Shown in pieces: positions 7,277 through 49,181 of a stretch of DNA of 64,000 nt (the first letter of the stretch is position 1; each line of letters starts with the position of its first letter). The DNA comes from a virus: the IMG/VR virus record IMGVR_UViG_3300029240_000001. The stretch is one strand, 5' to 3'. Both the position numbers and the translations under genes were made by a program. Below the pieces are notes generated by a model, which was not told the origin of the DNA, searched no databases, and saw nothing but the letters and a program-made list of their open reading frames with translations.

Positions 7277-8287
7277 ATGGAAGAATTAAAAGAAATGAAT
7301 TCTTCCGTTGATGGGCTACAAGATACAATATATACGGAAGTAAAAGATCCATATGGATTCATTTATATCACAACGAATTTGATTGATGGCAAAAGATATT
7401 TAGGCCAAAGAAAATTCTATGGAAATTGGCAAGAATATCTTGGTAGTGGTGCAGCATTTAAACAAGCAATTGACAAATATGGAAAAGAAAATTTTGTAAG
7501 AAATGTAATTGATATTGCTTATTCTGCAGAAGAATTAAATGAAAAGGAATACCATTATAGTGTTTTCTTTAATGCTGTTGAATCTAACAATTGGTATAAT
7601 CTTGTTTATGGTGGAGGAACAACGCAAGGATGGACTCCAAGTAAAGAAACAAGAAAAAAGATATCAAAAGCTGCAAAAGAAAGACTTTCAGATCCAAATA
7701 ATCATCCAATGTATGGAAGAGTAGGATTAGTAGGCGAGAATAATCCCCAGTTTAAAGTTTCTCCAAAAGAACGCATGGATGAAGAAACATATAAACAATG
7801 GTATGAAAAACATAAATTATATTGGGCAAATCCAACAACTAAAGGCAAACATATATGGATAGGAAAACAACATCCCAGTTTAGGTAAAAAATTGTCAGAT
7901 GAACAAAAATTGAATCTATCAGAAAAAGCAAAAGAAAGATTTATAAATTCAAGCAATCATCCAATGTACGGAAAACATCACACAGAAGAAGCAAAGCAAA
8001 AGATGAGTGATTCTCGTAAAGGGAGTAATTGGTGGAAGTGTAGAAGAATATATTGTATAGAATTAAATCAAATTTTTTGGGGAGCAAAAGAAGTACAAAA
8101 TTTATATGGATTTGATCCAAGCTCTATTACAAAGTGCTGTAGAGGTAAACAAAATTATACGTATAAACATCCACAAACAGGCGAGGCATTGCATTGGTTG
8201 TATGCGGAAGATGCAATTGAAAAAGGATATATCACACAAGAAGAGTTAGATAGATATATAAATAGTTTAAAAGGTAAAGGAGACTGA
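7277..8287 (+). CDS. GIY-YIG homing endonuclease with NUMOD3-like repeats
   Basis: GFIYITTNLIDGKRYLGQ...EKEYHY, plus repeated NHPMYG(R/K) modules. Confidence 0.8.
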   Translation: MEELKEMNSSVDGLQDTIYTEVKDPYGFIYITTNLIDGKRYLGQRKFYGNWQEYLGSGAAFKQAIDKYGKENFVRNVIDIAYSAEELNEKEYHYSVFFNAVESNNWYNLVYGGGTTQGWTPSKETRKKISKAAKERLSDPNNHPMYGRVGLVGENNPQFKVSPKERMDEETYKQWYEKHKLYWANPTTKGKHIWIGKQHPSLGKKLSDEQKLNLSEKAKERFINSSNHPMYGKHHTEEAKQKMSDSRKGSNWWKCRRIYCIELNQIFWGAKEVQNLYGFDPSSITKCCRGKQNYTYKHPQTGEALHWLYAEDAIEKGYITQEELDRYINSLKGKGD

Positions 8288-13141: not shown

Positions 13142-13798
13142 ATGGCAACGAAGGAACAGATGACGGTACATCGTGCGCTTGCAGAACTTAAGGTTATTGA
13201 TTCACGCATCAATAATGCAATTTGTTCTGGTACGTTTGTGATTGCGAATAAGCATTCTAATGAAAAGATCCATGGAGTGACTATTAATGAGTTCAAGAAC
13301 AGCATGAAGTCAGATTTCCAGAAGGTGTCTGATCTGATTGCAAGACGTAATGCAATCAAGAATGCGGTTGTTGCATCTAATGCAGTAACGAAGGTTAAGG
13401 TTGGTGACAACGAATACACAGTTGCTACTGCAATTGAGATGAAGAACCATGGGATGGAGTTTAAGAACACATTCAAGAAGTGTCTTGAAGCTCAGTATGC
13501 TGTAGCAAAGAATGAGCTTGATAAGAACAGCGGTGATCCTCTTGAGAAGAGAGCAGAGAATTATGTTCTTAGTGTCATTCAGGCACAGCCGAAGGATTCT
13601 AAGATGGCTGTTGATTCGGAAGCGATGAAGAATCTTCGTGCTCAGTACATCAAGGATAACACTTATGACATCATTGATCCTATTGGTGTCAAGGATGCCA
13701 TTGAGCAGCTTGACAACGAGATTTCTAGTTTCATTACTGAAGTTGATGCGGCACTTTCGGTTAGTAACGCACTGACTGTGCTTGATATCGAGTATTAA
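13142..13798 (+). CDS. hypothetical protein (probably very highly expressed)
   Basis: AAAGGAG RBS; four strong promoters lie upstream; AAG/CTT-rich codon usage. Confidence 0.65.
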   Translation: MATKEQMTVHRALAELKVIDSRINNAICSGTFVIANKHSNEKIHGVTINEFKNSMKSDFQKVSDLIARRNAIKNAVVASNAVTKVKVGDNEYTVATAIEMKNHGMEFKNTFKKCLEAQYAVAKNELDKNSGDPLEKRAENYVLSVIQAQPKDSKMAVDSEAMKNLRAQYIKDNTYDIIDPIGVKDAIEQLDNEISSFITEVDAALSVSNALTVLDIEY

Positions 13799-13946
13799 GC
13801 AGCTAACTTGCTGCCATTCGAAAACCTAGAACGGACTTGCTTCGATGGTTTTGACCGATACATTGATGTGAAATAATAAAAAAATTGGTCTTCAACAATA
13901 TTTTTACTAATGCTAATAATACAGTAAAAAAGATCTAATATATGAC

Positions 13947-13974
13947 TTGACTTAAAATTGATTAAAATTAAGAT
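13947..13974 (+). promoter_or_regulatory. possible promoter of the tRNA operon
   Basis: TTGACT, 16-nt spacer, TAAGAT. Confidence 0.35.
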
Positions 13975-14013
13975 GTACATATATTTTCTAACTGTAAAGC
14001 TTAAAGTTTAAAT

Positions 14014-14041
14014 ATCAATGTTCAGAGATCAATGTTCAAAG
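14014..14041. repeat. tandem 14-bp direct repeat
   Basis: ATCAATGTTCAGAG followed by ATCAATGTTCAAAG, flanked by several TTAAAGTT-like words. Confidence 0.7.
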
Positions 14042-14289
14042 ATTATTTTTTCGTCAAAGTTTAAGTCTTAAAGTTGTAAAGAGGGCTTTTAGATAATTAT
14101 TAATTAAAATTGTGTGCCCACAAAGTTTTACAAAATCCTTGAGCAATGGTTTGGTTTCAAGTTCAATGGCCATAGGTTATCCACAAGGCTGAATGGTAGC
14201 AATACTTGTACGAAAATAGGCTAATGTGAAATAGACAGAATTTTGAGTACTAGCAGAGCTGGGCATCTCTGAAAACTGCCCATTGATAT

Positions 14290-14376
14290 GCAGGTGTGCT
14301 GGAATTGGAATACAGAACAGACTTAAAATCTGTCGCCCAGATGGGATTGAGGGATCGTGACCCTTCACCTGCACCA
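14290..14376 (+). tRNA. tRNA-Leu (UAA), type II, CCA encoded
   Basis: Acceptor GCAGGTG/CACCTGC; anticodon arm ACAGA-CTTAAAA-TCTGT; long variable arm. Confidence 0.8.
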
Positions 14377-14464
14377 CGCGAACAAATGGAATGCGTCAAG
14401 TAATGTGTGGCTGGCTGACCTAAGAACCATTGACCTTGGCAAGTCATTAAACTACCATCTATAT

Positions 14465-14549
14465 GGGGGTGTGGCGTAACTAGCAGCCGCGCAAGTCTCA
14501 AAAACTTGTGGAGAAATCCGTCCGGGCGCACATCCCGGCACCCCTACCA
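14465..14549 (+). tRNA. tRNA-Leu (CAA), type II, CCA encoded
   Basis: Acceptor GGGGGTG/CACCCCT (G1-U72); anticodon arm CAAGT-CTCAAAA-ACTTG; atypical T-loop CGCACAT. Confidence 0.65.
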
Positions 14550-14552
14550 TAT

Positions 14553-14645
14553 CCTCCTTTAGTGTAATGGTAGCACGGCGCACGCAAGGCGCTAGAGCGG
14601 TTCAACTCCGTAATGTGTTAGAGCGGTTCGATTCCGCAAGGAGGT
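14553..14645 (+). tRNA. tRNA-Cys (GCA)-like with C33 and a duplicated T-arm-like hairpin
   Basis: Acceptor CCTCCTT/AAGGAGG; anticodon loop ACGCAAG; AGAGCGGTTCAACTCCGT followed by AGAGCGGTTCGATTCCGC. Confidence 0.5.
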
Positions 14646-14829
14646 CGTCTGGCACGGACGAAGTGCGCTGTGGTCATACAGTAAAATGACAAAGCTCATG
14701 GCCGATATGGATGGCGACAAATATGAGCGAGGCAGAACAATTAAATCTTGGGTCTGCAAGTAAGCCTGTCGGCAACAGAGGAGAGCCTTATGCTTGCTAG
14801 GTGTTCTAGATGCCTTTCTCCTCATAAAT

Positions 14830-14928
14830 GGGAACTTGGTCAAGTTGCTAAGACACTGGCGGGGACAGAATAGTGCAAACATTAAGAGCACACTGCCGGA
14901 GACACGAGTTCGAATCTCGTAGTTCCCA
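14830..14928 (+). ncRNA. tRNA-like gene (99 nt) with about 30 nt replacing the anticodon loop
   Basis: Acceptor GGGAACT/AGTTCCC; T-arm ACGAG-TTCGAAT-CTCGT. A 7-bp stem CTGGCGG/CTGCCGG encloses a 30-nt insert. Confidence 0.5.
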
Positions 14929-14937
14929 ACTTAATAT

Positions 14938-15022
14938 GGGTCAGTAGCGAATCGGCAAACGCAGCAGACTGTAAATCTGCCTCCTTCGGGAATAGGTGGA
15001 TCGACACCACCCTGACCCACCA
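14938..15022 (+). tRNA. tRNA-Tyr (GUA), type II, CCA encoded
   Basis: Acceptor GGGTCAG/CTGACCC; anticodon arm GCAGA-CTGTAAA-TCTGC. Confidence 0.8.
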
Positions 15023-15073
15023 AATGATAGTGAGTAGTGCAAATAGAAAAGATAAGAACGAAATAGTACCTTG

Positions 15074-15150
15074 TATGGTGGATAAACCTATTAATCACTT
15101 ATTGATTTTATTGGAGTCATGCACGGCTCCGCTTGCTATCATTACCATAG
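15074..15150 (+). ncRNA. structured RNA closed by a 7-bp acceptor-like stem (not a cloverleaf)
   Basis: TATGGTG/TACCATA closing stem. Internal hairpins AATCA-CTTAT-TGATT and GGAG-N10-CTCC. Confidence 0.3.
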
Positions 15151-15201
15151 GTCTTTGTGGCAACTGTACGACCTTATAAACTACTAAAGTTGCAATATTA
15201 T

Positions 15202-15277
15202 GCTCCGGTAGTTTAATTGGTCAAAACGTGCGACTTATAATCGCTTGTTGGGGGATCGTGGCCCTCTCGGAGCACCA
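15202..15277 (+). tRNA. tRNA-Ile (UAU), CCA encoded
   Basis: Acceptor GCTCCGG/TCGGAGC; anticodon loop CTTATAA. Confidence 0.7.
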
Positions 15278-15309
15278 CATTAAATTTTACACTGAAGAAG
15301 TGATGACAT

Positions 15310-15990
15310 TTGAGTAATGACGTAATAGGAACTAGAATTGGCATTTACGATATTTTATATGAATGTAATTTTAAATCAAATGATGGACATAAATTGTACC
15401 ATGTCAAATGTTGCGAATGCGGATATGAAACTAATATGCAACTAAGACATATTGGTGATGCAAAAAAATGTACCCATATCAATAAAAATGGGACAATAAA
15501 AATGTTTAGCGCTTATACTTGGGAGAACAAAAGAATAGGCGGAATATTCCAAGGCATGATCCAAAGATGCTACAACGAGCATGATAAAAGTTATCGTTGG
15601 TATGGGGCTAAAGGAATTCAAGTCTATGATGAATGGATTAACAATCCAAAGTCCTTTGAATATTGGGCTTTAGAGAATGGTTATGCAGACGATTTAACGA
15701 TTGATAGAATTAAAGAAGATGATAATTATTGCCCTGAAAATTGTAGATGGGTTACTGGATCGAATAATGCAAAGTATAAATCCACCACAAAAATGACTAC
15801 GGTAGATGGTATATCCCATACTGGAAGAGAATGGGCAGATATTCTTCATGTTGGAACAAATGTTATAAATACAATGTTAAGAAGGTTTCCAGAAGAACAA
15901 GTAAAGGAATTCATTAAAAAGCGAAAATTAGATCCGTCAAAGCATCCAACTAGTCATCAAACTTGGTTCCAAGTTTATGAGATTTCATAA
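15310..15990 (+). CDS. HNH-family homing endonuclease-like protein inside the tRNA array
   Basis: TTG start. RCYNEHDKSYRWYGAKGIQVYDEW...LTIDRIKEDDNYCPENCRWVT matches a motif common in phage HNH-type endonucleases. Confidence 0.65.
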   Translation: MSNDVIGTRIGIYDILYECNFKSNDGHKLYHVKCCECGYETNMQLRHIGDAKKCTHINKNGTIKMFSAYTWENKRIGGIFQGMIQRCYNEHDKSYRWYGAKGIQVYDEWINNPKSFEYWALENGYADDLTIDRIKEDDNYCPENCRWVTGSNNAKYKSTTKMTTVDGISHTGREWADILHVGTNVINTMLRRFPEEQVKEFIKKRKLDPSKHPTSHQTWFQVYEIS

Positions 15991-16151
15991 TTCCCAGATC
16001 AAAGTCAACAACAAAGATTGCTGACCTGTCGTGTGGCAGCATATAAATGAGCGACTTAATACATTTTCCATATAGCTCCTTAAAAATTGCTTTAAGCAAA
16101 GCGTAAATGCTTATCGCTACTAATCATTAGCGGTTGTTGAAACATAAATGA

Positions 16152-16230
16152 AACACTGAGGTCGGAAAGGCTCCCGACGCTCCTCTTATGAGGAACCTGA
16201 GATGCAGGATACGCCGCCCTGCCAGTGTTT
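16152..16230 (+). ncRNA. tRNA-shaped cloverleaf with a 4-nt loop where the anticodon loop should be
   Basis: 7-bp stem AACACTG/CAGTGTT. Three arms: GTCGG-N8-CCGAC, TCCTC-TTAT-GAGGA and GCAGG-N9-CCTGC. Confidence 0.4.
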
Positions 16231-16240
16231 AAAATTATAT

Positions 16241-16311
16241 TATCGTATAGCTTAATGGGAAAGCGCCCTCACTATCAGAGGGAGATACTTGTTCGATTCA
16301 AGTTGCGTTAG
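16241..16311 (+). tRNA. tRNA with anticodon loop ACUAUCA (nominal UAU; C33 and C37)
   Basis: Canonical D arm GCTT-AATGGGA-AAGC and T arm ACTTG-TTCGATT-CAAGT. Acceptor stem has one mismatch. Confidence 0.55.
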
Positions 16312-16389
16312 AAAAATGTGGATGCTATGCACGTCGCGCGCCGCCACTAAACAAAGCGTAGCTGGCGCTGTGGAAAGACACAGAGATCT

Positions 16390-16474
16390 GCAGGAGTCCC
16401 ATAGTGGTCGATTGGAGCGGTTTTGTAAGCCGCCAGCTTTGCTCACGTCGGTTCGAATCCGACCTCCTGCTCCA
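16390..16474 (+). tRNA. type II tRNA with loop UUUGUAA (nominal UGU, or GUA shifted by one), CCA encoded
   Basis: Acceptor GCAGGAG/CTCCTGC; 13-nt variable arm; T arm GTCGG-TTCGAAT-CCGAC; discriminator U. Confidence 0.6.
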
Positions 16475-16596
16475 CATTGCCAGCTATCGCTGCTTGTAGT
16501 TAGTGAGTTGTTTTAGAAGCAGTAAACCCACAAGTATGGTGGGCGGCACACCAGTAGTCGTTAAGGGCGAGATCAAGATGAACTGGTACATTATAT

Positions 16597-16712
16597 GCAA
16601 GTAAGGAAGAATTGGTCTTCTCTCATTTAACAAAGCTGAGATACAAAAAGATCGCTACTTTGGAAACGTTCGCTTTGGGGAAATGTGTGTTCGAATCACA
16701 CTACTTGCTCCA
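16597..16712 (+). ncRNA. tRNA-like gene (113 nt + CCA) with about 40 extra nt in the anticodon/variable region
   Basis: Acceptor GCAAGTA/TACTTGC; D arm GAAG-AATTGGT-CTTC; T arm GTGTG-TTCGAAT-CACAC. Confidence 0.5.
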
Positions 16713-16832
16713 GCGAGGTAACGTCACTTCCATCACGTAGCACAGCGGATAGCAAATAATGAAAGAGATATGTGCACCTAGGCTCTTGTTTGAATTATTT
16801 GGTTATGATAAAGAAGGATTGGAAACCTCGCT
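16713..16832 (+). ncRNA. 119-nt structured element closed by a perfect 7-bp stem
   Basis: GCGAGGT/ACCTCGC. It starts right after the preceding CCA and ends 5 nt before the next tRNA-like gene. Confidence 0.3.
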
Positions 16833-16836
16833 TTAT

Positions 16837-16926
16837 GAGAGCGTAACTCAGTTGGTAGAGTTTTATAGCGTGAAGGGATATGCTATTGAATACCCTTAGT
16901 CGCCAGTTCGAGTCTGGCCGCTCTCA
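16837..16926 (+). ncRNA. tRNA-like gene (90 nt) with a pseudoknot-capable insert in place of the anticodon arm
   Basis: Acceptor GAGAGCG/CGCTCTC; D arm ACTC-AGTTGGTA-GAGT; T arm GCCAG-TTCGAGT-CTGGC. Interleaved helices ATAGC/GCTAT and AAGGG/CCCTT. Confidence 0.5.
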
Positions 16927-16953
16927 TTAAAATATATATTAGGAGAAATAGTT

Positions 16954-17208
16954 ATGGCAATTAAAATAATTAGTAAAGGAAAAGATTTTGATAATCCTAT
17001 ATTTACCCAGCGATGCCCTAAATGCGATTGCGTATTTACCTATCAGAATGAAGATGCTCACAGGGAGCCTACTGGCAGGTATTACAAAGATTTTGAAGAT
17101 TATTTTATTAAAATGGACGATTGCGACAGACAAGAAATTGCAGTATCTGTTGAATGTCCTTGGTGTCATAAAAAGATTCATATAAAGGATGAATATAAAA
17201 AGATATGA
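16954..17208 (+). CDS. zinc-ribbon protein inside the tRNA array
   Basis: AGGAGA RBS; CPKCDC...CPWCHKK. Confidence 0.6.
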   Translation: MAIKIISKGKDFDNPIFTQRCPKCDCVFTYQNEDAHREPTGRYYKDFEDYFIKMDDCDRQEIAVSVECPWCHKKIHIKDEYKKI

Positions 17209-31275: not shown

Positions 31276-31591
31276 GGAAGCTTTTATTAATACTATGAAG
31301 CATCTTGAAAATCTGGATACGAAAATGGCAAGAGTTGATAGTGCTCTAAAAGATCTTTGCGAAGACTTTTGTGGATTTTATATTACAGATATTTTTGATA
31401 TTGTTATTAATTTGCTCGAAGAAGTGTTCCATGACCAAGAAGAATGGATTGGTTACTTTGTATTTGAAGAGGATTGGTTGCATGGATTTAAAATTGGAGA
31501 TGTCATTGTTAACGATGTACCGGTTATTATTGATGATTGGGGAGACGTTTATGATTTCTTGATTGTTAATATGGAGAAAGAAAATGAGTAG
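31265..31591 (+). CDS. hypothetical acidic protein
   Basis: ATG at 31265 after GAGGAGG. Confidence 0.5.
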   Translation: MISKEAFINTMKHLENLDTKMARVDSALKDLCEDFCGFYITDIFDIVINLLEEVFHDQEEWIGYFVFEEDWLHGFKIGDVIVNDVPVIIDDWGDVYDFLIVNMEKENE

Positions 31592-32162
31592 AATTTTTTA
31601 TATTTCAGATTTACATCTAATGCATCAAAACGTTATTAGGTTTGATAATCGCCCATTTAAAACAGGTGATGAGATGGACAAAACATTAATTGACAACTGG
31701 AATTCCGTTGTAAGCAATGCAGATCATGTGTATCATCTTGGAGATTTTTGCTGGGGCAAGAAGGATGATTGGATTAAGTATCTAAAGCTGCTAAATGGCA
31801 ATATTCATATCATAAAGGGCAATCATGATTTAAAAGAGTTTAGTTCAGATATTAGAAAGTATATTGTAGAAGCTGTAGACTACAAAGAAATCACTGACAA
31901 CGGACGACATGTAATCCTATGTCATTATCCGATCATGTGCTATAAAGCATCTTATAATCCAAATTGCTACATGCTTCATGGACATACCCACATAACAAGA
32001 GAGCAAGCTTTCGTTGAGAAGTGGACTAAGGAGCTAAGAGATAGTAAAAGCTCTAATAGCGATAGTTGTGGCAATATTTTTAATGTTGGATGCATGATGC
32101 CGCACATGGAATATAGACCCAAAACACTTGATGAAATTATTGAAAGGAACAATTATGGATAA
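31584..32162 (+). CDS. metallophosphoesterase (calcineurin-like)
   Basis: ISDLHLMH, GDFCWG, GNHD, HGHTH. Confidence 0.75.
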   Translation: MSRIFYISDLHLMHQNVIRFDNRPFKTGDEMDKTLIDNWNSVVSNADHVYHLGDFCWGKKDDWIKYLKLLNGNIHIIKGNHDLKEFSSDIRKYIVEAVDYKEITDNGRHVILCHYPIMCYKASYNPNCYMLHGHTHITREQAFVEKWTKELRDSKSSNSDSCGNIFNVGCMMPHMEYRPKTLDEIIERNNYG

Positions 32163-32940
32163 AACTCCTGAAGATATAGAATTAAAAATTATACAATTGT
32201 ATAATGATGGATTTGGAACCAATGAAATATCAACAATGTGGAATGTTCACAGAGCTACAGTTCAAAGAATTTTATTAAGGAATAATATAAAATTAAGGAA
32301 AAGAAGTCCAGTAAAATATAATGTACATTTTTTTGATAATTATACTATAGAGAGTTGCTATTGGGCTGGTTTTATTGCTGCGGACGGTACGATAAGAAGT
32401 GATAGAGATTCTGTAGAAATGCATTTGTCGAAAGAAGACTCTAGCCATCTTGATAAAATTGCAAAAGCAACAAATTTTACTGGCAATATACGTGTTGGAG
32501 AAAAAGATTGTTGTATTTCTTTTGCTGGAGAATGGTTTAAAAAATCATTAGAAAATAATTTTGATTTAACATCAAGAAAAAGCATGACTGTATTTGTGAG
32601 TGATAAAATACCAAAAAATATGATACCTCATTATCTTAGGGGGTATTTTGACGGTGACGGTTGTGTTTCACAAACTAATAATTATTTACATATAAGCTTT
32701 ACTTCTGGTTCAAAACGTTTCTTAAATCAAGTTATTGAAATTATATATGATCTCGGAATTAAAGTTAGAAACAAAAGTGAAAAACCTAAAATTCAAAGAT
32801 ATTCAATTCATTATTTTTGCAAAAATGCTTACTATGTTTTGAAATTTTTATATGAAAGTTCTACAGACTTAACAAGACTTAATAGAAAATATTTACTTTA
32901 TACTGATAGAATTAGTGAATTTGAACTAAAGACTTATTAA
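32155..32940 (+). CDS. LAGLIDADG homing endonuclease with N-terminal HTH
   Basis: Two LAGLIDADG motifs: YWAGFIAADGTI and YLRGYFDGDGCV. Confidence 0.8.
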   Translation: MDKTPEDIELKIIQLYNDGFGTNEISTMWNVHRATVQRILLRNNIKLRKRSPVKYNVHFFDNYTIESCYWAGFIAADGTIRSDRDSVEMHLSKEDSSHLDKIAKATNFTGNIRVGEKDCCISFAGEWFKKSLENNFDLTSRKSMTVFVSDKIPKNMIPHYLRGYFDGDGCVSQTNNYLHISFTSGSKRFLNQVIEIIYDLGIKVRNKSEKPKIQRYSIHYFCKNAYYVLKFLYESSTDLTRLNRKYLLYTDRISEFELKTY

Positions 32941-39524: not shown

Positions 39525-40295
39525 ATGGCAAATTTTATAGATATGACTGGATGGAAAATGTGGGAACATGGAGTGCCAGATAGTAGATTGACAGTAATTG
39601 AAAGGACAAATGATTATATAAGTCCTCAAGGAAGGCATCGCATAATGTGGAAGTGTGAATGCAACTGTCAAGAACATGGAGTAGTAATTACTTCTACAGA
39701 TCAAATAAAGTCTGGACGCACGAAATCATGTGGATGCCTGCAAAGAGAATCTTTAAAATATGTACACGAAAATAATAAAAAGCGATGTAAGTATGATGTT
39801 ACTTCTTTTAACTATGGTGTTGGATGGACTATAAATACTAATCGTGAATTTTATTTTGATTTAGAAGATTATGACAAAATAAAAGATTATTGCTGGAGAG
39901 AAGAAATAGATCATACTAACTATCATTTTTTAGGGACAAATATTAATCATAAACATACCATCATGTCGTGGTTAATTGTAGGAAAGTTTTATGATCATAT
40001 AGACAGAAATCCTTTTAACAATAAAAAAGATAATTTACGGAAATCTAACTCATCTGAAAATGCAAGAAATAGAACCGTCCCTAGTAATAATACATCTGGA
40101 ATTATAGGTGTACATTGGAGCAAATATTACAATGCTTGGGTTGCACAAATTGGCTTTGAAGGAAGAAGAATATGGCTTGGAAAATTTACAGAGAAAGAAG
40201 AAGCTATTCGGACACGTCTAAAAGCAGAATTAAAATATTTTGGAAACGAATTTGCACCGCAACGTCATTTGTTTAAAAAATATGGTATTGAATAA
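39525..40295 (+). CDS. HNH homing endonuclease with AP2 DNA-binding domain
   Basis: HIDRNPFNNKKDNLR; SGIIGVHWSKYYNAWVAQIGFEGRRIWLGKF. Confidence 0.75.
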   Translation: MANFIDMTGWKMWEHGVPDSRLTVIERTNDYISPQGRHRIMWKCECNCQEHGVVITSTDQIKSGRTKSCGCLQRESLKYVHENNKKRCKYDVTSFNYGVGWTINTNREFYFDLEDYDKIKDYCWREEIDHTNYHFLGTNINHKHTIMSWLIVGKFYDHIDRNPFNNKKDNLRKSNSSENARNRTVPSNNTSGIIGVHWSKYYNAWVAQIGFEGRRIWLGKFTEKEEAIRTRLKAELKYFGNEFAPQRHLFKKYGIE

Positions 40296-47866: not shown

Positions 47867-48301
47867 ATGAACATTAAGTTTGCTAAGACACGACCAGACG
47901 CCAAGATTCCAACAAAAGGAAGCGAATTGTCTGCAGGGTACGATTTGTATGCATGTATTAAAAATGATATTCCTGTCCCGCCTTACTCAACCGTTAAGGT
48001 GGGAACTGGATTATCAATACAGCCACCCAAAGGATATTTTGGAGCAATTTTTGCTCGAAGCGGGTTGGCAACCAATCACGGCTTAAGACCAGCGAATTGC
48101 GTTGGTGTATGTGACGAGGATTACACTGGAGAATATATTGTCGCTATTCACAATGATTCGGACAATATGTTTATTGTCCGTAATGGAGATAGGATAGCAC
48201 AGCTTATATTCCTGCCATATCTGCAGATAGTTTTTGAAGAGATTGACCATTTAGATTTTACAAAAAGAGGAAGTAATGGGTTTGGAAGTAGTGGAAAATA
48301 A
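47867..48301 (+). CDS. dut: dUTPase (trimeric)
   Basis: AGYDL, GVCDEDYTGE, RIAQL, RGSNGFGSSG. ATG at 47867 after GGAGG. Confidence 0.85.
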   Translation: MNIKFAKTRPDAKIPTKGSELSAGYDLYACIKNDIPVPPYSTVKVGTGLSIQPPKGYFGAIFARSGLATNHGLRPANCVGVCDEDYTGEYIVAIHNDSDNMFIVRNGDRIAQLIFLPYLQIVFEEIDHLDFTKRGSNGFGSSGK

Positions 48302-49181
48302 AATACCAATCTATTGTGATTTTTGTGGCAAAGAAATTAAAATTGACAACTACAAGCGAAAAGCGAACAAACATAATTTTTGCAATAGGGAATGTCATAA
48401 CAACTATCAAAAAAGCATGAAAACAAAATTAACCTGCCCAGTTTGTGGGGGATCTTTTTATCGAAAGCAAAGCGTGCTAGATAAGATGAAAGATGTTCAC
48501 AATGCAACATGCTCAAAAAAATGTTGTTATGAATTAAGAAAAACATTATATTTCAAAGATGGCAATCCTCAATATGGGTTAACTGGGAAATTGAATAGCA
48601 GTTGGAAGTCGGACGAAAGTAATAGTGGACAATATAAACTAATTAGAGTAGAAGATCACCCATTTAGAAGCAGCTCTAATTTTGTGCCAGAACACAGATT
48701 AATCGCAGAACAATACCTACTCAATGATTCAAATTCCATTGAAATAAATGGCGAACGATACTTAAAACCAGAATGTGTGGTACACCACATAGATTTTAAC
48801 AAAAAGAACAATAATGTTGACAATTTATTTGTTTTTGAAAATGAAGCAATACATACATTGTTCCATAATTTGTATAGAAGTGGCCGAGTAAAAGATTTGC
48901 CTGATTTTCTTGAATACTATCGTGACACATATATTAACAAGTTATACAATCACCAATGGCTTTATAGAGCCTATATTGATTTTGATCTGTCTATTAATCA
49001 AATTAGCAAATGGTTCAATATACCATATAAATCTGTTCAATTAGAAGTATATCAAACTCATTTGGACGATATAAAACAACAGAATAGAGATAACGAGACA
49101 TTTAAAAATTTTGTTATAAAGGAACTATCTATATTCAGCCAAGAATTAACTAAGAATACACAAGGAGAACAATATATATGA
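48276..49181 (+). CDS. HNH homing endonuclease
   Basis: VHHIDFNKKNNNVDNLFVFENEAIHTLFH plus N-terminal Cys clusters. Its start overlaps the dut 3' end. Confidence 0.7.
   Translation: MGLEVVENKIPIYCDFCGKEIKIDNYKRKANKHNFCNRECHNNYQKSMKTKLTCPVCGGSFYRKQSVLDKMKDVHNATCSKKCCYELRKTLYFKDGNPQYGLTGKLNSSWKSDESNSGQYKLIRVEDHPFRSSSNFVPEHRLIAEQYLLNDSNSIEINGERYLKPECVVHHIDFNKKNNNVDNLFVFENEAIHTLFHNLYRSGRVKDLPDFLEYYRDTYINKLYNHQWLYRAYIDFDLSINQISKWFNIPYKSVQLEVYQTHLDDIKQQNRDNETFKNFVIKELSIFSQELTKNTQGEQYI

Follow-up and report, generated by a model that had tools for sequence, protein, structure and literature searches.

tRNA scaffolds with other RNA in place of the anticodon arm in a phage tRNA array

Several tRNA-shaped RNAs that do not decode are known, among them transfer-messenger RNA (tmRNA), the Y RNAs and the tRNA-like ends of viral RNAs, and in the herpesvirus MHV68 a tRNA-like module causes viral small RNAs, in the form of tRNA-miRNA chimeras called TMERs, to be made and processed by tRNA enzymes. 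The principle has also been engineered: in the tRNA scaffold designed by Ponchon and Dardel a recombinant RNA reportedly replaces the anticodon stem-loop, and the stable chimera is said to be trimmed by tRNA enzymes. Here we describe three loci, c1 (positions 14830-14928), c2 (16597-16709) and c3 (16837-16926), in a 64,000-nt segment of a human-gut phage genome (IMG/VR record IMGVR_UViG_3300029240_000001; the whole segment is referred to as the window). Each locus has the acceptor, D and T arms of a tRNA and extra sequence where the anticodon arm should be. The reading put forward is that c1-c3 are genes for non-decoding, tRNA-scaffolded structured RNAs that would be co-transcribed with the tRNA array in which they lie, and on the sequence comparisons described below we give this reading about an even chance of being correct.

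Like c1-c3, the engineered scaffold keeps the acceptor, D and T arms and carries another RNA at the anticodon stem-loop; it is, however, man-made, whereas c1-c3 are natural phage genes under selection. By this analogy, nature seems to use the engineered design. The tRNA-like domain of tmRNA and the bacterial Y RNA YrlA resemble c1-c3 in that the acceptor/T-arm elbow is kept, the anticodon arm is replaced and there is no tRNA decoding. In contrast, the pseudoknot-rich tmRNA has four features none of which is seen in c1-c3, a length of about 350 nt, a G3.U70 pair, a tag reading frame and the lack of a D stem; YrlA is circularly permuted relative to c1-c3, with its ends in the Ro-binding stem. 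No Rfam match to tmRNA or YrlA was obtained in the window's array. As an identity for the loci tmRNA was rejected: position 3:70 is G-C in c1, A-U in c2 and G-C in c3, the loci span 90-113 nt rather than ~350 nt, and an ARAGORN tRNA/tmRNA scan of the window returned tRNAs only. The payload hairpins of the MHV68 TMERs follow the tRNA, and the host is eukaryotic, whereas the payload of c1-c3 replaces the anticodon arm. Bacterial group I introns and the archaeal and eukaryal bulge-helix-bulge introns of tRNA genes also place extra nucleotides in the anticodon region; unlike them, the extra sequence of c1-c3 is 17-41 nt, does not lie at 37/38, offers no convincing bulge-helix-bulge and restores no loop upon excision. 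A literature search found no description of phage genes in which the tRNA body is complete and the anticodon arm alone is swapped for structured RNA.

Scaffold anatomy and conservation of c1, c2 and c3

Direct reading of the sequence bore out the claim of an earlier note on this DNA, made from the letters alone, that three tRNA scaffolds with intact acceptor, D and T arms are present. At all three loci, and in all of their alleles, the acceptor stem is paired at 7/7 positions, the D arm has 3-4 bp and the T arm pairs at 5/5 positions around a TTCRA loop. A strict scanner (7/7 acceptor, 5/5 T stem, TTCRANN loop and D arm) found five scaffolds in the window, all on the plus strand within the array, and c1, c2 and c3 are three of the five. 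Dinucleotide shuffles gave a mean of 0.115 scaffolds for the window (200 shuffles) and 0.002 for the array region (500 shuffles); a relaxed version of the scanner was too noisy for a clean census. The lengths given earlier for the extra sequence at the anticodon-arm position, 17-41 nt, were upheld, and a comparison of the three inserts detected no common sequence, again in agreement with the note. No open reading frame (ORF) of note covers the three loci. Support for tRNA-scaffolded RNAs is strongest for c3, good for c2 and weakest for c1.

At c3 (16837..16926, plus strand) the acceptor stem is GAGAGCG/CGCTCTC, the D arm (16846-16861) is ACTC-AGTTGGTA-GAGT and the T arm (16902-16918) is GCCAG-TTCGAGT-CTGGC; CCA is not encoded. 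The 40 nt between the D and T arms hold two interleaved helices exactly as the note had described them, ATAGC (16865-16869)/GCTAT (16882-16886) and AAGGG (16873-16877)/CCCTT (16893-16897). The first of these, S1, extends to 7 bp (ATAGCGT/ATGCTAT, 16865-16871 / 16880-16886), and the second is designated S2 (16873-16877 / 16893-16897). Two c3 alleles, about 82% identical, are found among relatives (contigs labelled L001, L003, L011 and so on), the second being that of L037, L075 and L077. In the second allele S1 changes from ATAGC/GCTAT to TTATC/GATAA, with two compensatory base pairs, S2 changes from AAGGG/CCCTT to AAGGA/TCCTT, with one, and the D stem changes from ACTC/GAGT to GCTC/GAGC (A-T to G-C). 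The acceptor substitutions A4-to-G and C6-to-T give wobbles, and every stem change in the scaffold keeps pairing. Indeed, no change between the alleles breaks a pair, and the loops differ in length as well as in sequence through indels. The three compensatory double changes keep both helices in the two alleles, in line with the earlier suggestion of a pseudoknot, and with moderate confidence we propose that the c3 payload is a compact H-type pseudoknot under selection, standing in for the anticodon arm.

At c2 (16597..16712, plus strand) the acceptor stem GCAAGTA/TACTTGC is followed by a discriminator T at 16709 and an encoded CCA at 16710-16712; the D arm (16606-16620) is GAAG-AATTGGT-CTTC and the T arm (16685-16701) is GTGTG-TTCGAAT-CACAC. 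A 64-nt A-rich, weakly structured segment (16621-16684) replaces both the anticodon arm and the variable loop. The corresponding interval of a class I tRNA is about 22 nt, which agrees with the earlier estimate of some 40 extra nucleotides between the D and T arms. An ORF of 42 codons with a TTG start (16612-16740), just downstream of AAGGAAG, runs through c2; by hand count 5/10 of its substitutions among relatives are synonymous, which is not significant, and the ORF is probably due to chance. Upstream of c2, a 109-nt segment (16479-16587) is missing from several relatives; it has the short repeat ACATT at its borders and holds ACAAGTA, a near copy of the 5' acceptor strand of c2. The c2 trailer at 16712-16719 (AGCGAGGT) can form 8 bp with the c3 leader at 16825-16832 (ACCTCGCT) around a 127-nt spacer, and this pairing could be a processing signal.

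The scaffold of c1 (14830..14928, plus strand) is tRNA-Glu-like, its nearest canonical counterpart being the tRNA-Glu of the relative L044. The acceptor stem is GGGAACT/AGTTCCC, the D arm GTC-AAGTTGCTAA-GAC and the T arm ACGAG-TTCGAAT-CTCGT, with no encoded CCA. In place of the anticodon loop is a 7-bp stem, CTGGCGG (14856-14862)/CTGCCGG (14893-14899), which encloses an insert of exactly 30 nt, as first noted. A repeat search identified a 15-nt direct repeat at 14853..14904 on the plus strand (ACACTGGCGGGGACA at 14853-14867 and ACACTGCCGGAGACA at 14890-14904), which brackets the unique 22 nt of c1 and overlaps both strands of the 7-bp stem.

Relatives of the phage were collected as 70 loci from an RNA-ligase search and about 35 more by DNA patterns. 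Homologues of the three loci were scanned for with exact patterns, T-arm/acceptor in IMG/VR and D-arm/T-loop in metagenomes, and these pattern scans gave near-identical copies only, with no insert-free or diverged homologue. The copies are confined to one species-level cluster of about 30 human-gut phage contigs, such as OWIM01000007.1, OLGJ01000005.1 and ERZ791794 NODE-17. In GTDB genomes the c3 pattern had no match, and the c2 D-arm 18-mer had 28 scattered matches against roughly 17 expected, about the number due to chance. Within the cluster, every related contig has c3 and about 26/31 have c2, those without c2 having a class II tRNA-Ser(GCU)-like gene in its slot.

Variable sites make up 4/99 positions of c1 against 52/192 (27%) in its flanks (Fisher p = 5e-7), and 7/113 positions of c2 against 37/249 (15%) in its flanks (Fisher p = 0.023). 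At 4-6% both loci compare with three canonical tRNAs of the array (11/228; 4.8%), and the payloads are conserved like the scaffolds, with 2/44 variable sites in c1 and 4/64 in c2. These figures are indicative of purifying selection on c1 and c2, which are as conserved as true tRNAs. The loci had also been considered as possible decaying pseudogenes, an explanation that is contradicted by the intact scaffolds in every allele, by the conservation of c1 and c2 relative to their flanks and by the compensatory changes in c3. The latter are also the outcome of the check for covariation in the arrays of relatives that the note had proposed.

The anticodon arm and signs of introns

A canonical anticodon arm, that is a 5-bp stem with a 7-nt loop, U33 and a purine at 37, could not be drawn in c1, c2 or c3 with Rfam, with ARAGORN or by manual enumeration. 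A canonical arm drawn by a folding or covariance program had been named beforehand as evidence against the claim that the arm is missing, and neither Rfam nor ARAGORN produced one. The Rfam tRNA model (RF00005; gathering threshold 29 bits) scores 43.2 bits on c3 by skipping 35 nt where the 17-nt anticodon arm belongs, gives a partial match of 17.6 bits on c1 and does not match c2. With introns either off or allowed to 60 nt, ARAGORN calls c3 alone of the three loci and draws it as Phe(GAA), with a G.A stem mismatch and a 20-nt variable arm. When the program draws the second c3 allele, the loop has 8 nt, there are two mismatches and the variable region is 26 nt long and unstructured; the Phe(GAA) drawing is therefore not conserved.

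Excision was enumerated by hand for each insert, with i nt kept on the 5' side and 7-i nt on the 3' side. No single excision from c1-c3 produced a 5-bp stem and a 7-nt loop with U33 and purine 37: U33 is never gained in c1, positions 37 and 38 are T in every version of c2, and in c3 no stem is anchored beside the D arm and variable loop. Rfam searches (E<=10 on 13500-19000; E<=1 on three relatives) found no ribozyme, intron, tmRNA or riboswitch in any insert. A group I intron was rejected as a candidate, the extra sequence being 17-41 nt compared with the 200 nt or more that the catalytic core P3-P9 usually takes, and no Rfam intron family matched; the earlier remark that the inserts are far too short for group I introns thus holds. 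A script for bulge-helix-bulge motifs (3-4-3) found none in c1 or the second c3 allele, and in c2 and c3 only relaxed, G.U-rich or D-arm-overlapping matches, nothing convincing or beyond chance. Among the ~35 window ORFs scanned with Pfam/PHROGs, which are part of the window's ORFs, there was no splicing endonuclease. Moreover, no insert-free allele of c1, c2 or c3 was found among about 30 related genomes, and the copies in IMG/VR and metagenomes (24, 26 and 5-8 for the three loci) all carry the insert. Together, the lack of a loop-restoring excision, of an insert-free allele, of any ribozyme or group I match, of a convincing bulge-helix-bulge and, among the ORFs scanned, of a splicing endonuclease leaves the unrecognised small intron, another of the note's options, unsupported for these loci.

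Genome setting and RNA-in-tRNA genes of the clade

The window has a low GC content of about 35% and encodes a DnaB-like helicase, a Pol III alpha-type polymerase, an NAD-dependent ligase and a RecJ-like exonuclease, together with an anaerobic ribonucleotide reductase, tail genes, integrases and several homing endonucleases. The phage polymerase is 46% identical in amino acids to its counterpart in Clostridium phage Amboise, a distant relationship, and the array has no megablast match among GenBank phages. Identical or near-identical arrays are found on 150-160 kb contigs of IMG/VR and human-gut metagenomes. The array (14290..18035, plus strand; ARAGORN, Rfam and PHROGs) contains all three loci on one strand, with nine tRNAs by ARAGORN, eleven Rfam tRNA matches, an HNH endonuclease ORF (15310-15990; PHROGs HNH endonuclease, 4.7e-41), one skipping-rope RNA (16151-16230; Rfam, 78.8 bits) and, besides the canonical tRNAs and c1-c3, further odd tRNA-like genes. 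By consensus scan, a single terminator-like hairpin (18212..18237) is present on the plus strand of the array region, downstream of the array, which suggests that the array is one transcription unit. At least five homing-endonuclease-type ORFs lie in the window, at 7277-8287 (GIY-YIG/NUMOD3), 15310-15990 (HNH), 32128-32940 (LAGLIDADG), 39525-40295 (HNH-AP2) and 48276-49181 (HNH), which fits the mosaic state of the array.

One of the odd tRNA-like genes (14553-14646) lacks U33 in its anticodon loop, ACGCAAG, and has its variable/T-arm region tandemly duplicated over 26 nt. Contigs L082 and L085 are without the duplication, and this polymorphism in the population shows that the array is often rearranged; a second, very different allele of this gene occurs in L007 and L103. 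The gene at 16240-16312, called Ile(tat) by ARAGORN and found in almost all relatives, has a C at positions 33 and 37 of its loop, ACTATCA, and pairs 6/7 positions of its acceptor stem; in L074 its anticodon stem carries a compensatory change from CCCTC/GAGGG to CCATC/GATGG. An 85-nt tRNA at 16390-16474 combines a class II shape (3-bp D stem, 13-nt variable arm) with a UGU (Thr) anticodon and a U73 discriminator; it is strongly conserved, with two variable sites, and could be a missense or recoding tRNA. Two tRNAs that Rfam recognises and ARAGORN missed in the window, at 17347-17418 (loop CTTTTAA, Lys) and 17599-17669 (loop CTTTGGA, Gln), have the non-canonical T loops AGCGTAA and GGCAGAA, a type that recurs in the inner element of the nested Ile gene described below.

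About 3 kb downstream of the array is an RNA-repair-type cassette (20200..24406, plus strand), delineated with Pfam, PHROGs and structure comparison. It encodes a class V aminotransferase (20200-21303; Pfam Aminotran_5), an RNA ligase (21335-22714; PHROGs phrog_968 RNA ligase, 3.7e-66), an RlaP-like nucleotidyltransferase (22717-23532; Pfam RlaP) and a polynucleotide-kinase-like protein (23495-24406; Pfam AAA_33). The solved kinase nearest to the latter is Pnkp1 (4xrp, 1.3e-9), part of an RNA-repair complex; by sequence, no relative of the RNA ligase was detectable among solved structures. A metallophosphoesterase is encoded apart from the cassette, at 31563-32162.

Other members of the clade carry tRNA scaffolds with unrelated 40-70-nt payloads (L042-44, for example L043 14575-14690, and L064 187-809 and 2557-2668), which shows that the design recurs. 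These scaffolds have 60-68 nt where the anticodon arm belongs; Rfam sees some of them as tRNA and has no family for the inserts. Four L064 paralogues share a hairpin plus an AAACTGCAATTT motif, the sequence that follows the hairpin being A(A/C)AC(T/A)GCAA(A)TTT. L043 additionally carries a ROOL RNA (309.8 bits) and an abiF RNA motif.

In several sister genomes a whole tRNA ending in CCA is nested in the anticodon loop of another tRNA gene. Removal of an Asn tRNA from Lys(UUU) (L011 4933-5081) joins CTTTT to AA, and an uninterrupted orthologue exists in L003; removal of Phe(GAA) from Glu(UUC) (L003 1018-1170, also in L005, L006, L009 and L032) joins CTTTC to AA; and removal of a tRNA-like cloverleaf from Ile(UAU) (L001 5229-5377) joins CTT to ATAA, so that a perfect 7-nt loop is restored in each of these three genes. 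The inner tRNA of L006 has a further 17-nt insertion in its own anticodon loop. The nested Ile gene is present in at least 15 other contigs besides L001, in the window's own cluster; two alleles of this gene share identical outer exons while differing by two compensatory changes in the inner acceptor stem. It alternates in the population with a cassette of tRNA-Ile(UAU), HNH ORF and skipping-rope RNA in the slot 15202-16230, and genomes with the nested Ile gene lack this uninterrupted tRNA-Ile(UAU) cassette, which the window carries. The restored loops, the identity of the exons and the missing uninterrupted Ile gene argue that the outer tRNAs are used. For this the RNAs would have to be cut and resealed, and genes for an RNA ligase and a Pnkp1-like kinase lie just downstream of the array; a splicing-like route thus probably exists in this clade.

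The nested genes share with c1-c3 the clade, the array, the insertion region and the preserved outer scaffold. Their insert, however, is a tRNA with CCA and their loop is restorable, whereas the insert of c1-c3 is not tRNA-like and the loop cannot be restored. No similarity to the inner tRNA-like elements of sister genomes was found for the c2 or c3 insert, and that of the c1 insert is weak (p = 0.01-0.05, uncorrected); the c1 insert was accordingly rejected as a decayed copy of such an element. RNA has thus been placed repeatedly at the anticodon-loop position in this clade. A bolder and rather doubtful proposal is that it uses the tRNA anticodon loop as a docking site for pseudoknots, hairpins and whole tRNAs, with at least the tRNA-in-tRNA genes matured by an undescribed bacterial-type splicing in which end-processing enzymes free the inner RNA and the phage ligase and kinase reseal the outer one; c1-c3 would then be substrates, or non-spliced payload-carrying offshoots.

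Alternative explanations and possible role

Several observations weigh against the interpretation of c1-c3 as genes for structured RNAs on tRNA scaffolds. All copies come from one species-level cluster, and hence almost no covariation is available for c1 and c2. An interleaved, anchored pair of 5-bp helices arises in 11-20% of shuffled c3 payloads, so the case for the c3 pseudoknot rests on the compensatory pattern in the two alleles. The 64-nt segment of c2 alone folds no better than its shuffles (z = -0.42), and one of the four variants in the payload disrupts a predicted pair. At c1, which is accessory (7-8 contigs), the stem strands are also a direct repeat; in contig L103 the repeat copies agree at 14/15 positions (CACTGCCGGAGACA), which produces a C.C mismatch in the stem, and in one lineage a 258-nt deletion joins a neighbour, c4, to c1, removing the 3' part of c4 and the 5' part of c1. 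A search of the window for antisense targets gave none above chance.

Part of this evidence would be expected if c1-c3 were by-products of recombination (duplication, chimera formation or homing-endonuclease repair), that is, dead tRNA genes too young to decay. The 5' half of the array is mosaic, the neighbour at 14553-14646 has its polymorphic 26-nt tandem duplication, the 15-nt direct repeat flanks the c1 insert, the c4-c1 fusion exists, a tandem-like repeat can be seen by eye in c2 (ATCGCTACTTTGGAAACG / TTCGCTTTGGGGAAATG), and the genome holds HNH, GIY-YIG and LAGLIDADG endonucleases. We nevertheless regard this origin as unlikely: c1 and c2 vary as little as true tRNAs, 2-7 times less than the flanking sequence, the scaffold stems are perfect in all alleles, and c3, both of whose payload helices show compensatory changes, occurs throughout the cluster. 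The same pairing also bears on the idea that selection acts on the DNA, the RNA being irrelevant and the insertions either breaking the recognition sites of homing endonucleases that attack tRNA genes of competing phages or serving as such sites. Free-standing endonuclease genes in and around the array and the alternative cassettes at one slot (Ile with HNH and skipping-rope RNA, or nested Ile) fit this idea, as does SegB of phage T4, which cuts within tRNA gene clusters. A 2026 paper deals with SegB and the tRNA-targeting Septu (PMC13096335). DNA-level selection would, however, leave unexplained both the perfect pairing of the acceptor, D and T stems and the covariation of the c3 payload helices, and is judged very improbable.

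A further alternative is that the inserts are undescribed protein-dependent introns, which host or phage nucleases would cut and the phage RNA ligase and kinase would rejoin to give working tRNAs. The sister genomes lend this some force, with 7-nt loops regained in the nested genes, Ile outer exons identical between alleles that have compensatory changes in the inner acceptor stem, no other tRNA-Ile(UAU) in genomes with the nested Ile gene, and a ligase and a kinase encoded near an array whose clade probably has some splicing-like route. For c1-c3 themselves introns appear quite improbable: the inserts are not tRNA-like and lack CCA, their excision does not restore the 5-bp stem and the 7-nt loop with U33 and purine 37, and neither a bulge-helix-bulge beyond chance, a ribozyme or group I match, nor an insert-free allele was found.

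If c1-c3 are genes for non-decoding RNAs on tRNA scaffolds, the transcript shared with the array would be cut by RNase P and by RNase Z or exonucleases into stable products, and CCA, which c1 and c3 do not encode, would be added post-transcriptionally. The scaffold appears to keep what processing and binding proteins read, namely the acceptor stem, the D/T elbow and the discriminator, and each RNA should thus be excised by the processing enzymes. The tRNA body would serve maturation and stability, and the inserted RNA would be the working part or would make the molecule uncleavable and undecodable. Of the options raised in the earlier note, tRNA-shaped carriers processed by RNase P/Z are the best anatomical fit, the processing being predicted from sequence, and decoys for tRNA-targeting nucleases are compatible with the neighbouring RNA-repair genes. 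The RNAs may be tRNA mimics and bind to proteins that recognise tRNA, for example host defence enzymes that cleave or modify it, without entering translation. This role in a conflict over tRNA cleavage is a guess and the least certain element of the proposal, made because the RNA ligase/kinase repair cassette lies so close downstream; the repair genes of the phage are explained by this conflict too, and mimicry would be a part of it.

Genes of this kind are either missed by tRNA finders, as are c1 and c2, or assigned a false anticodon, as is c3 (Phe GAA), and the nested tRNA genes raise the question of whether a protein-based tRNA splicing route exists in bacteria or phages. The players so far recognised in the conflict between phages and hosts over tRNAs are anticodon nucleases, repair ligases and resistant phage tRNAs. 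Provided that the RNAs of c1-c3 are produced, they would be the natural equivalent of the engineered tRNA scaffold and would add a new type of player to that conflict.

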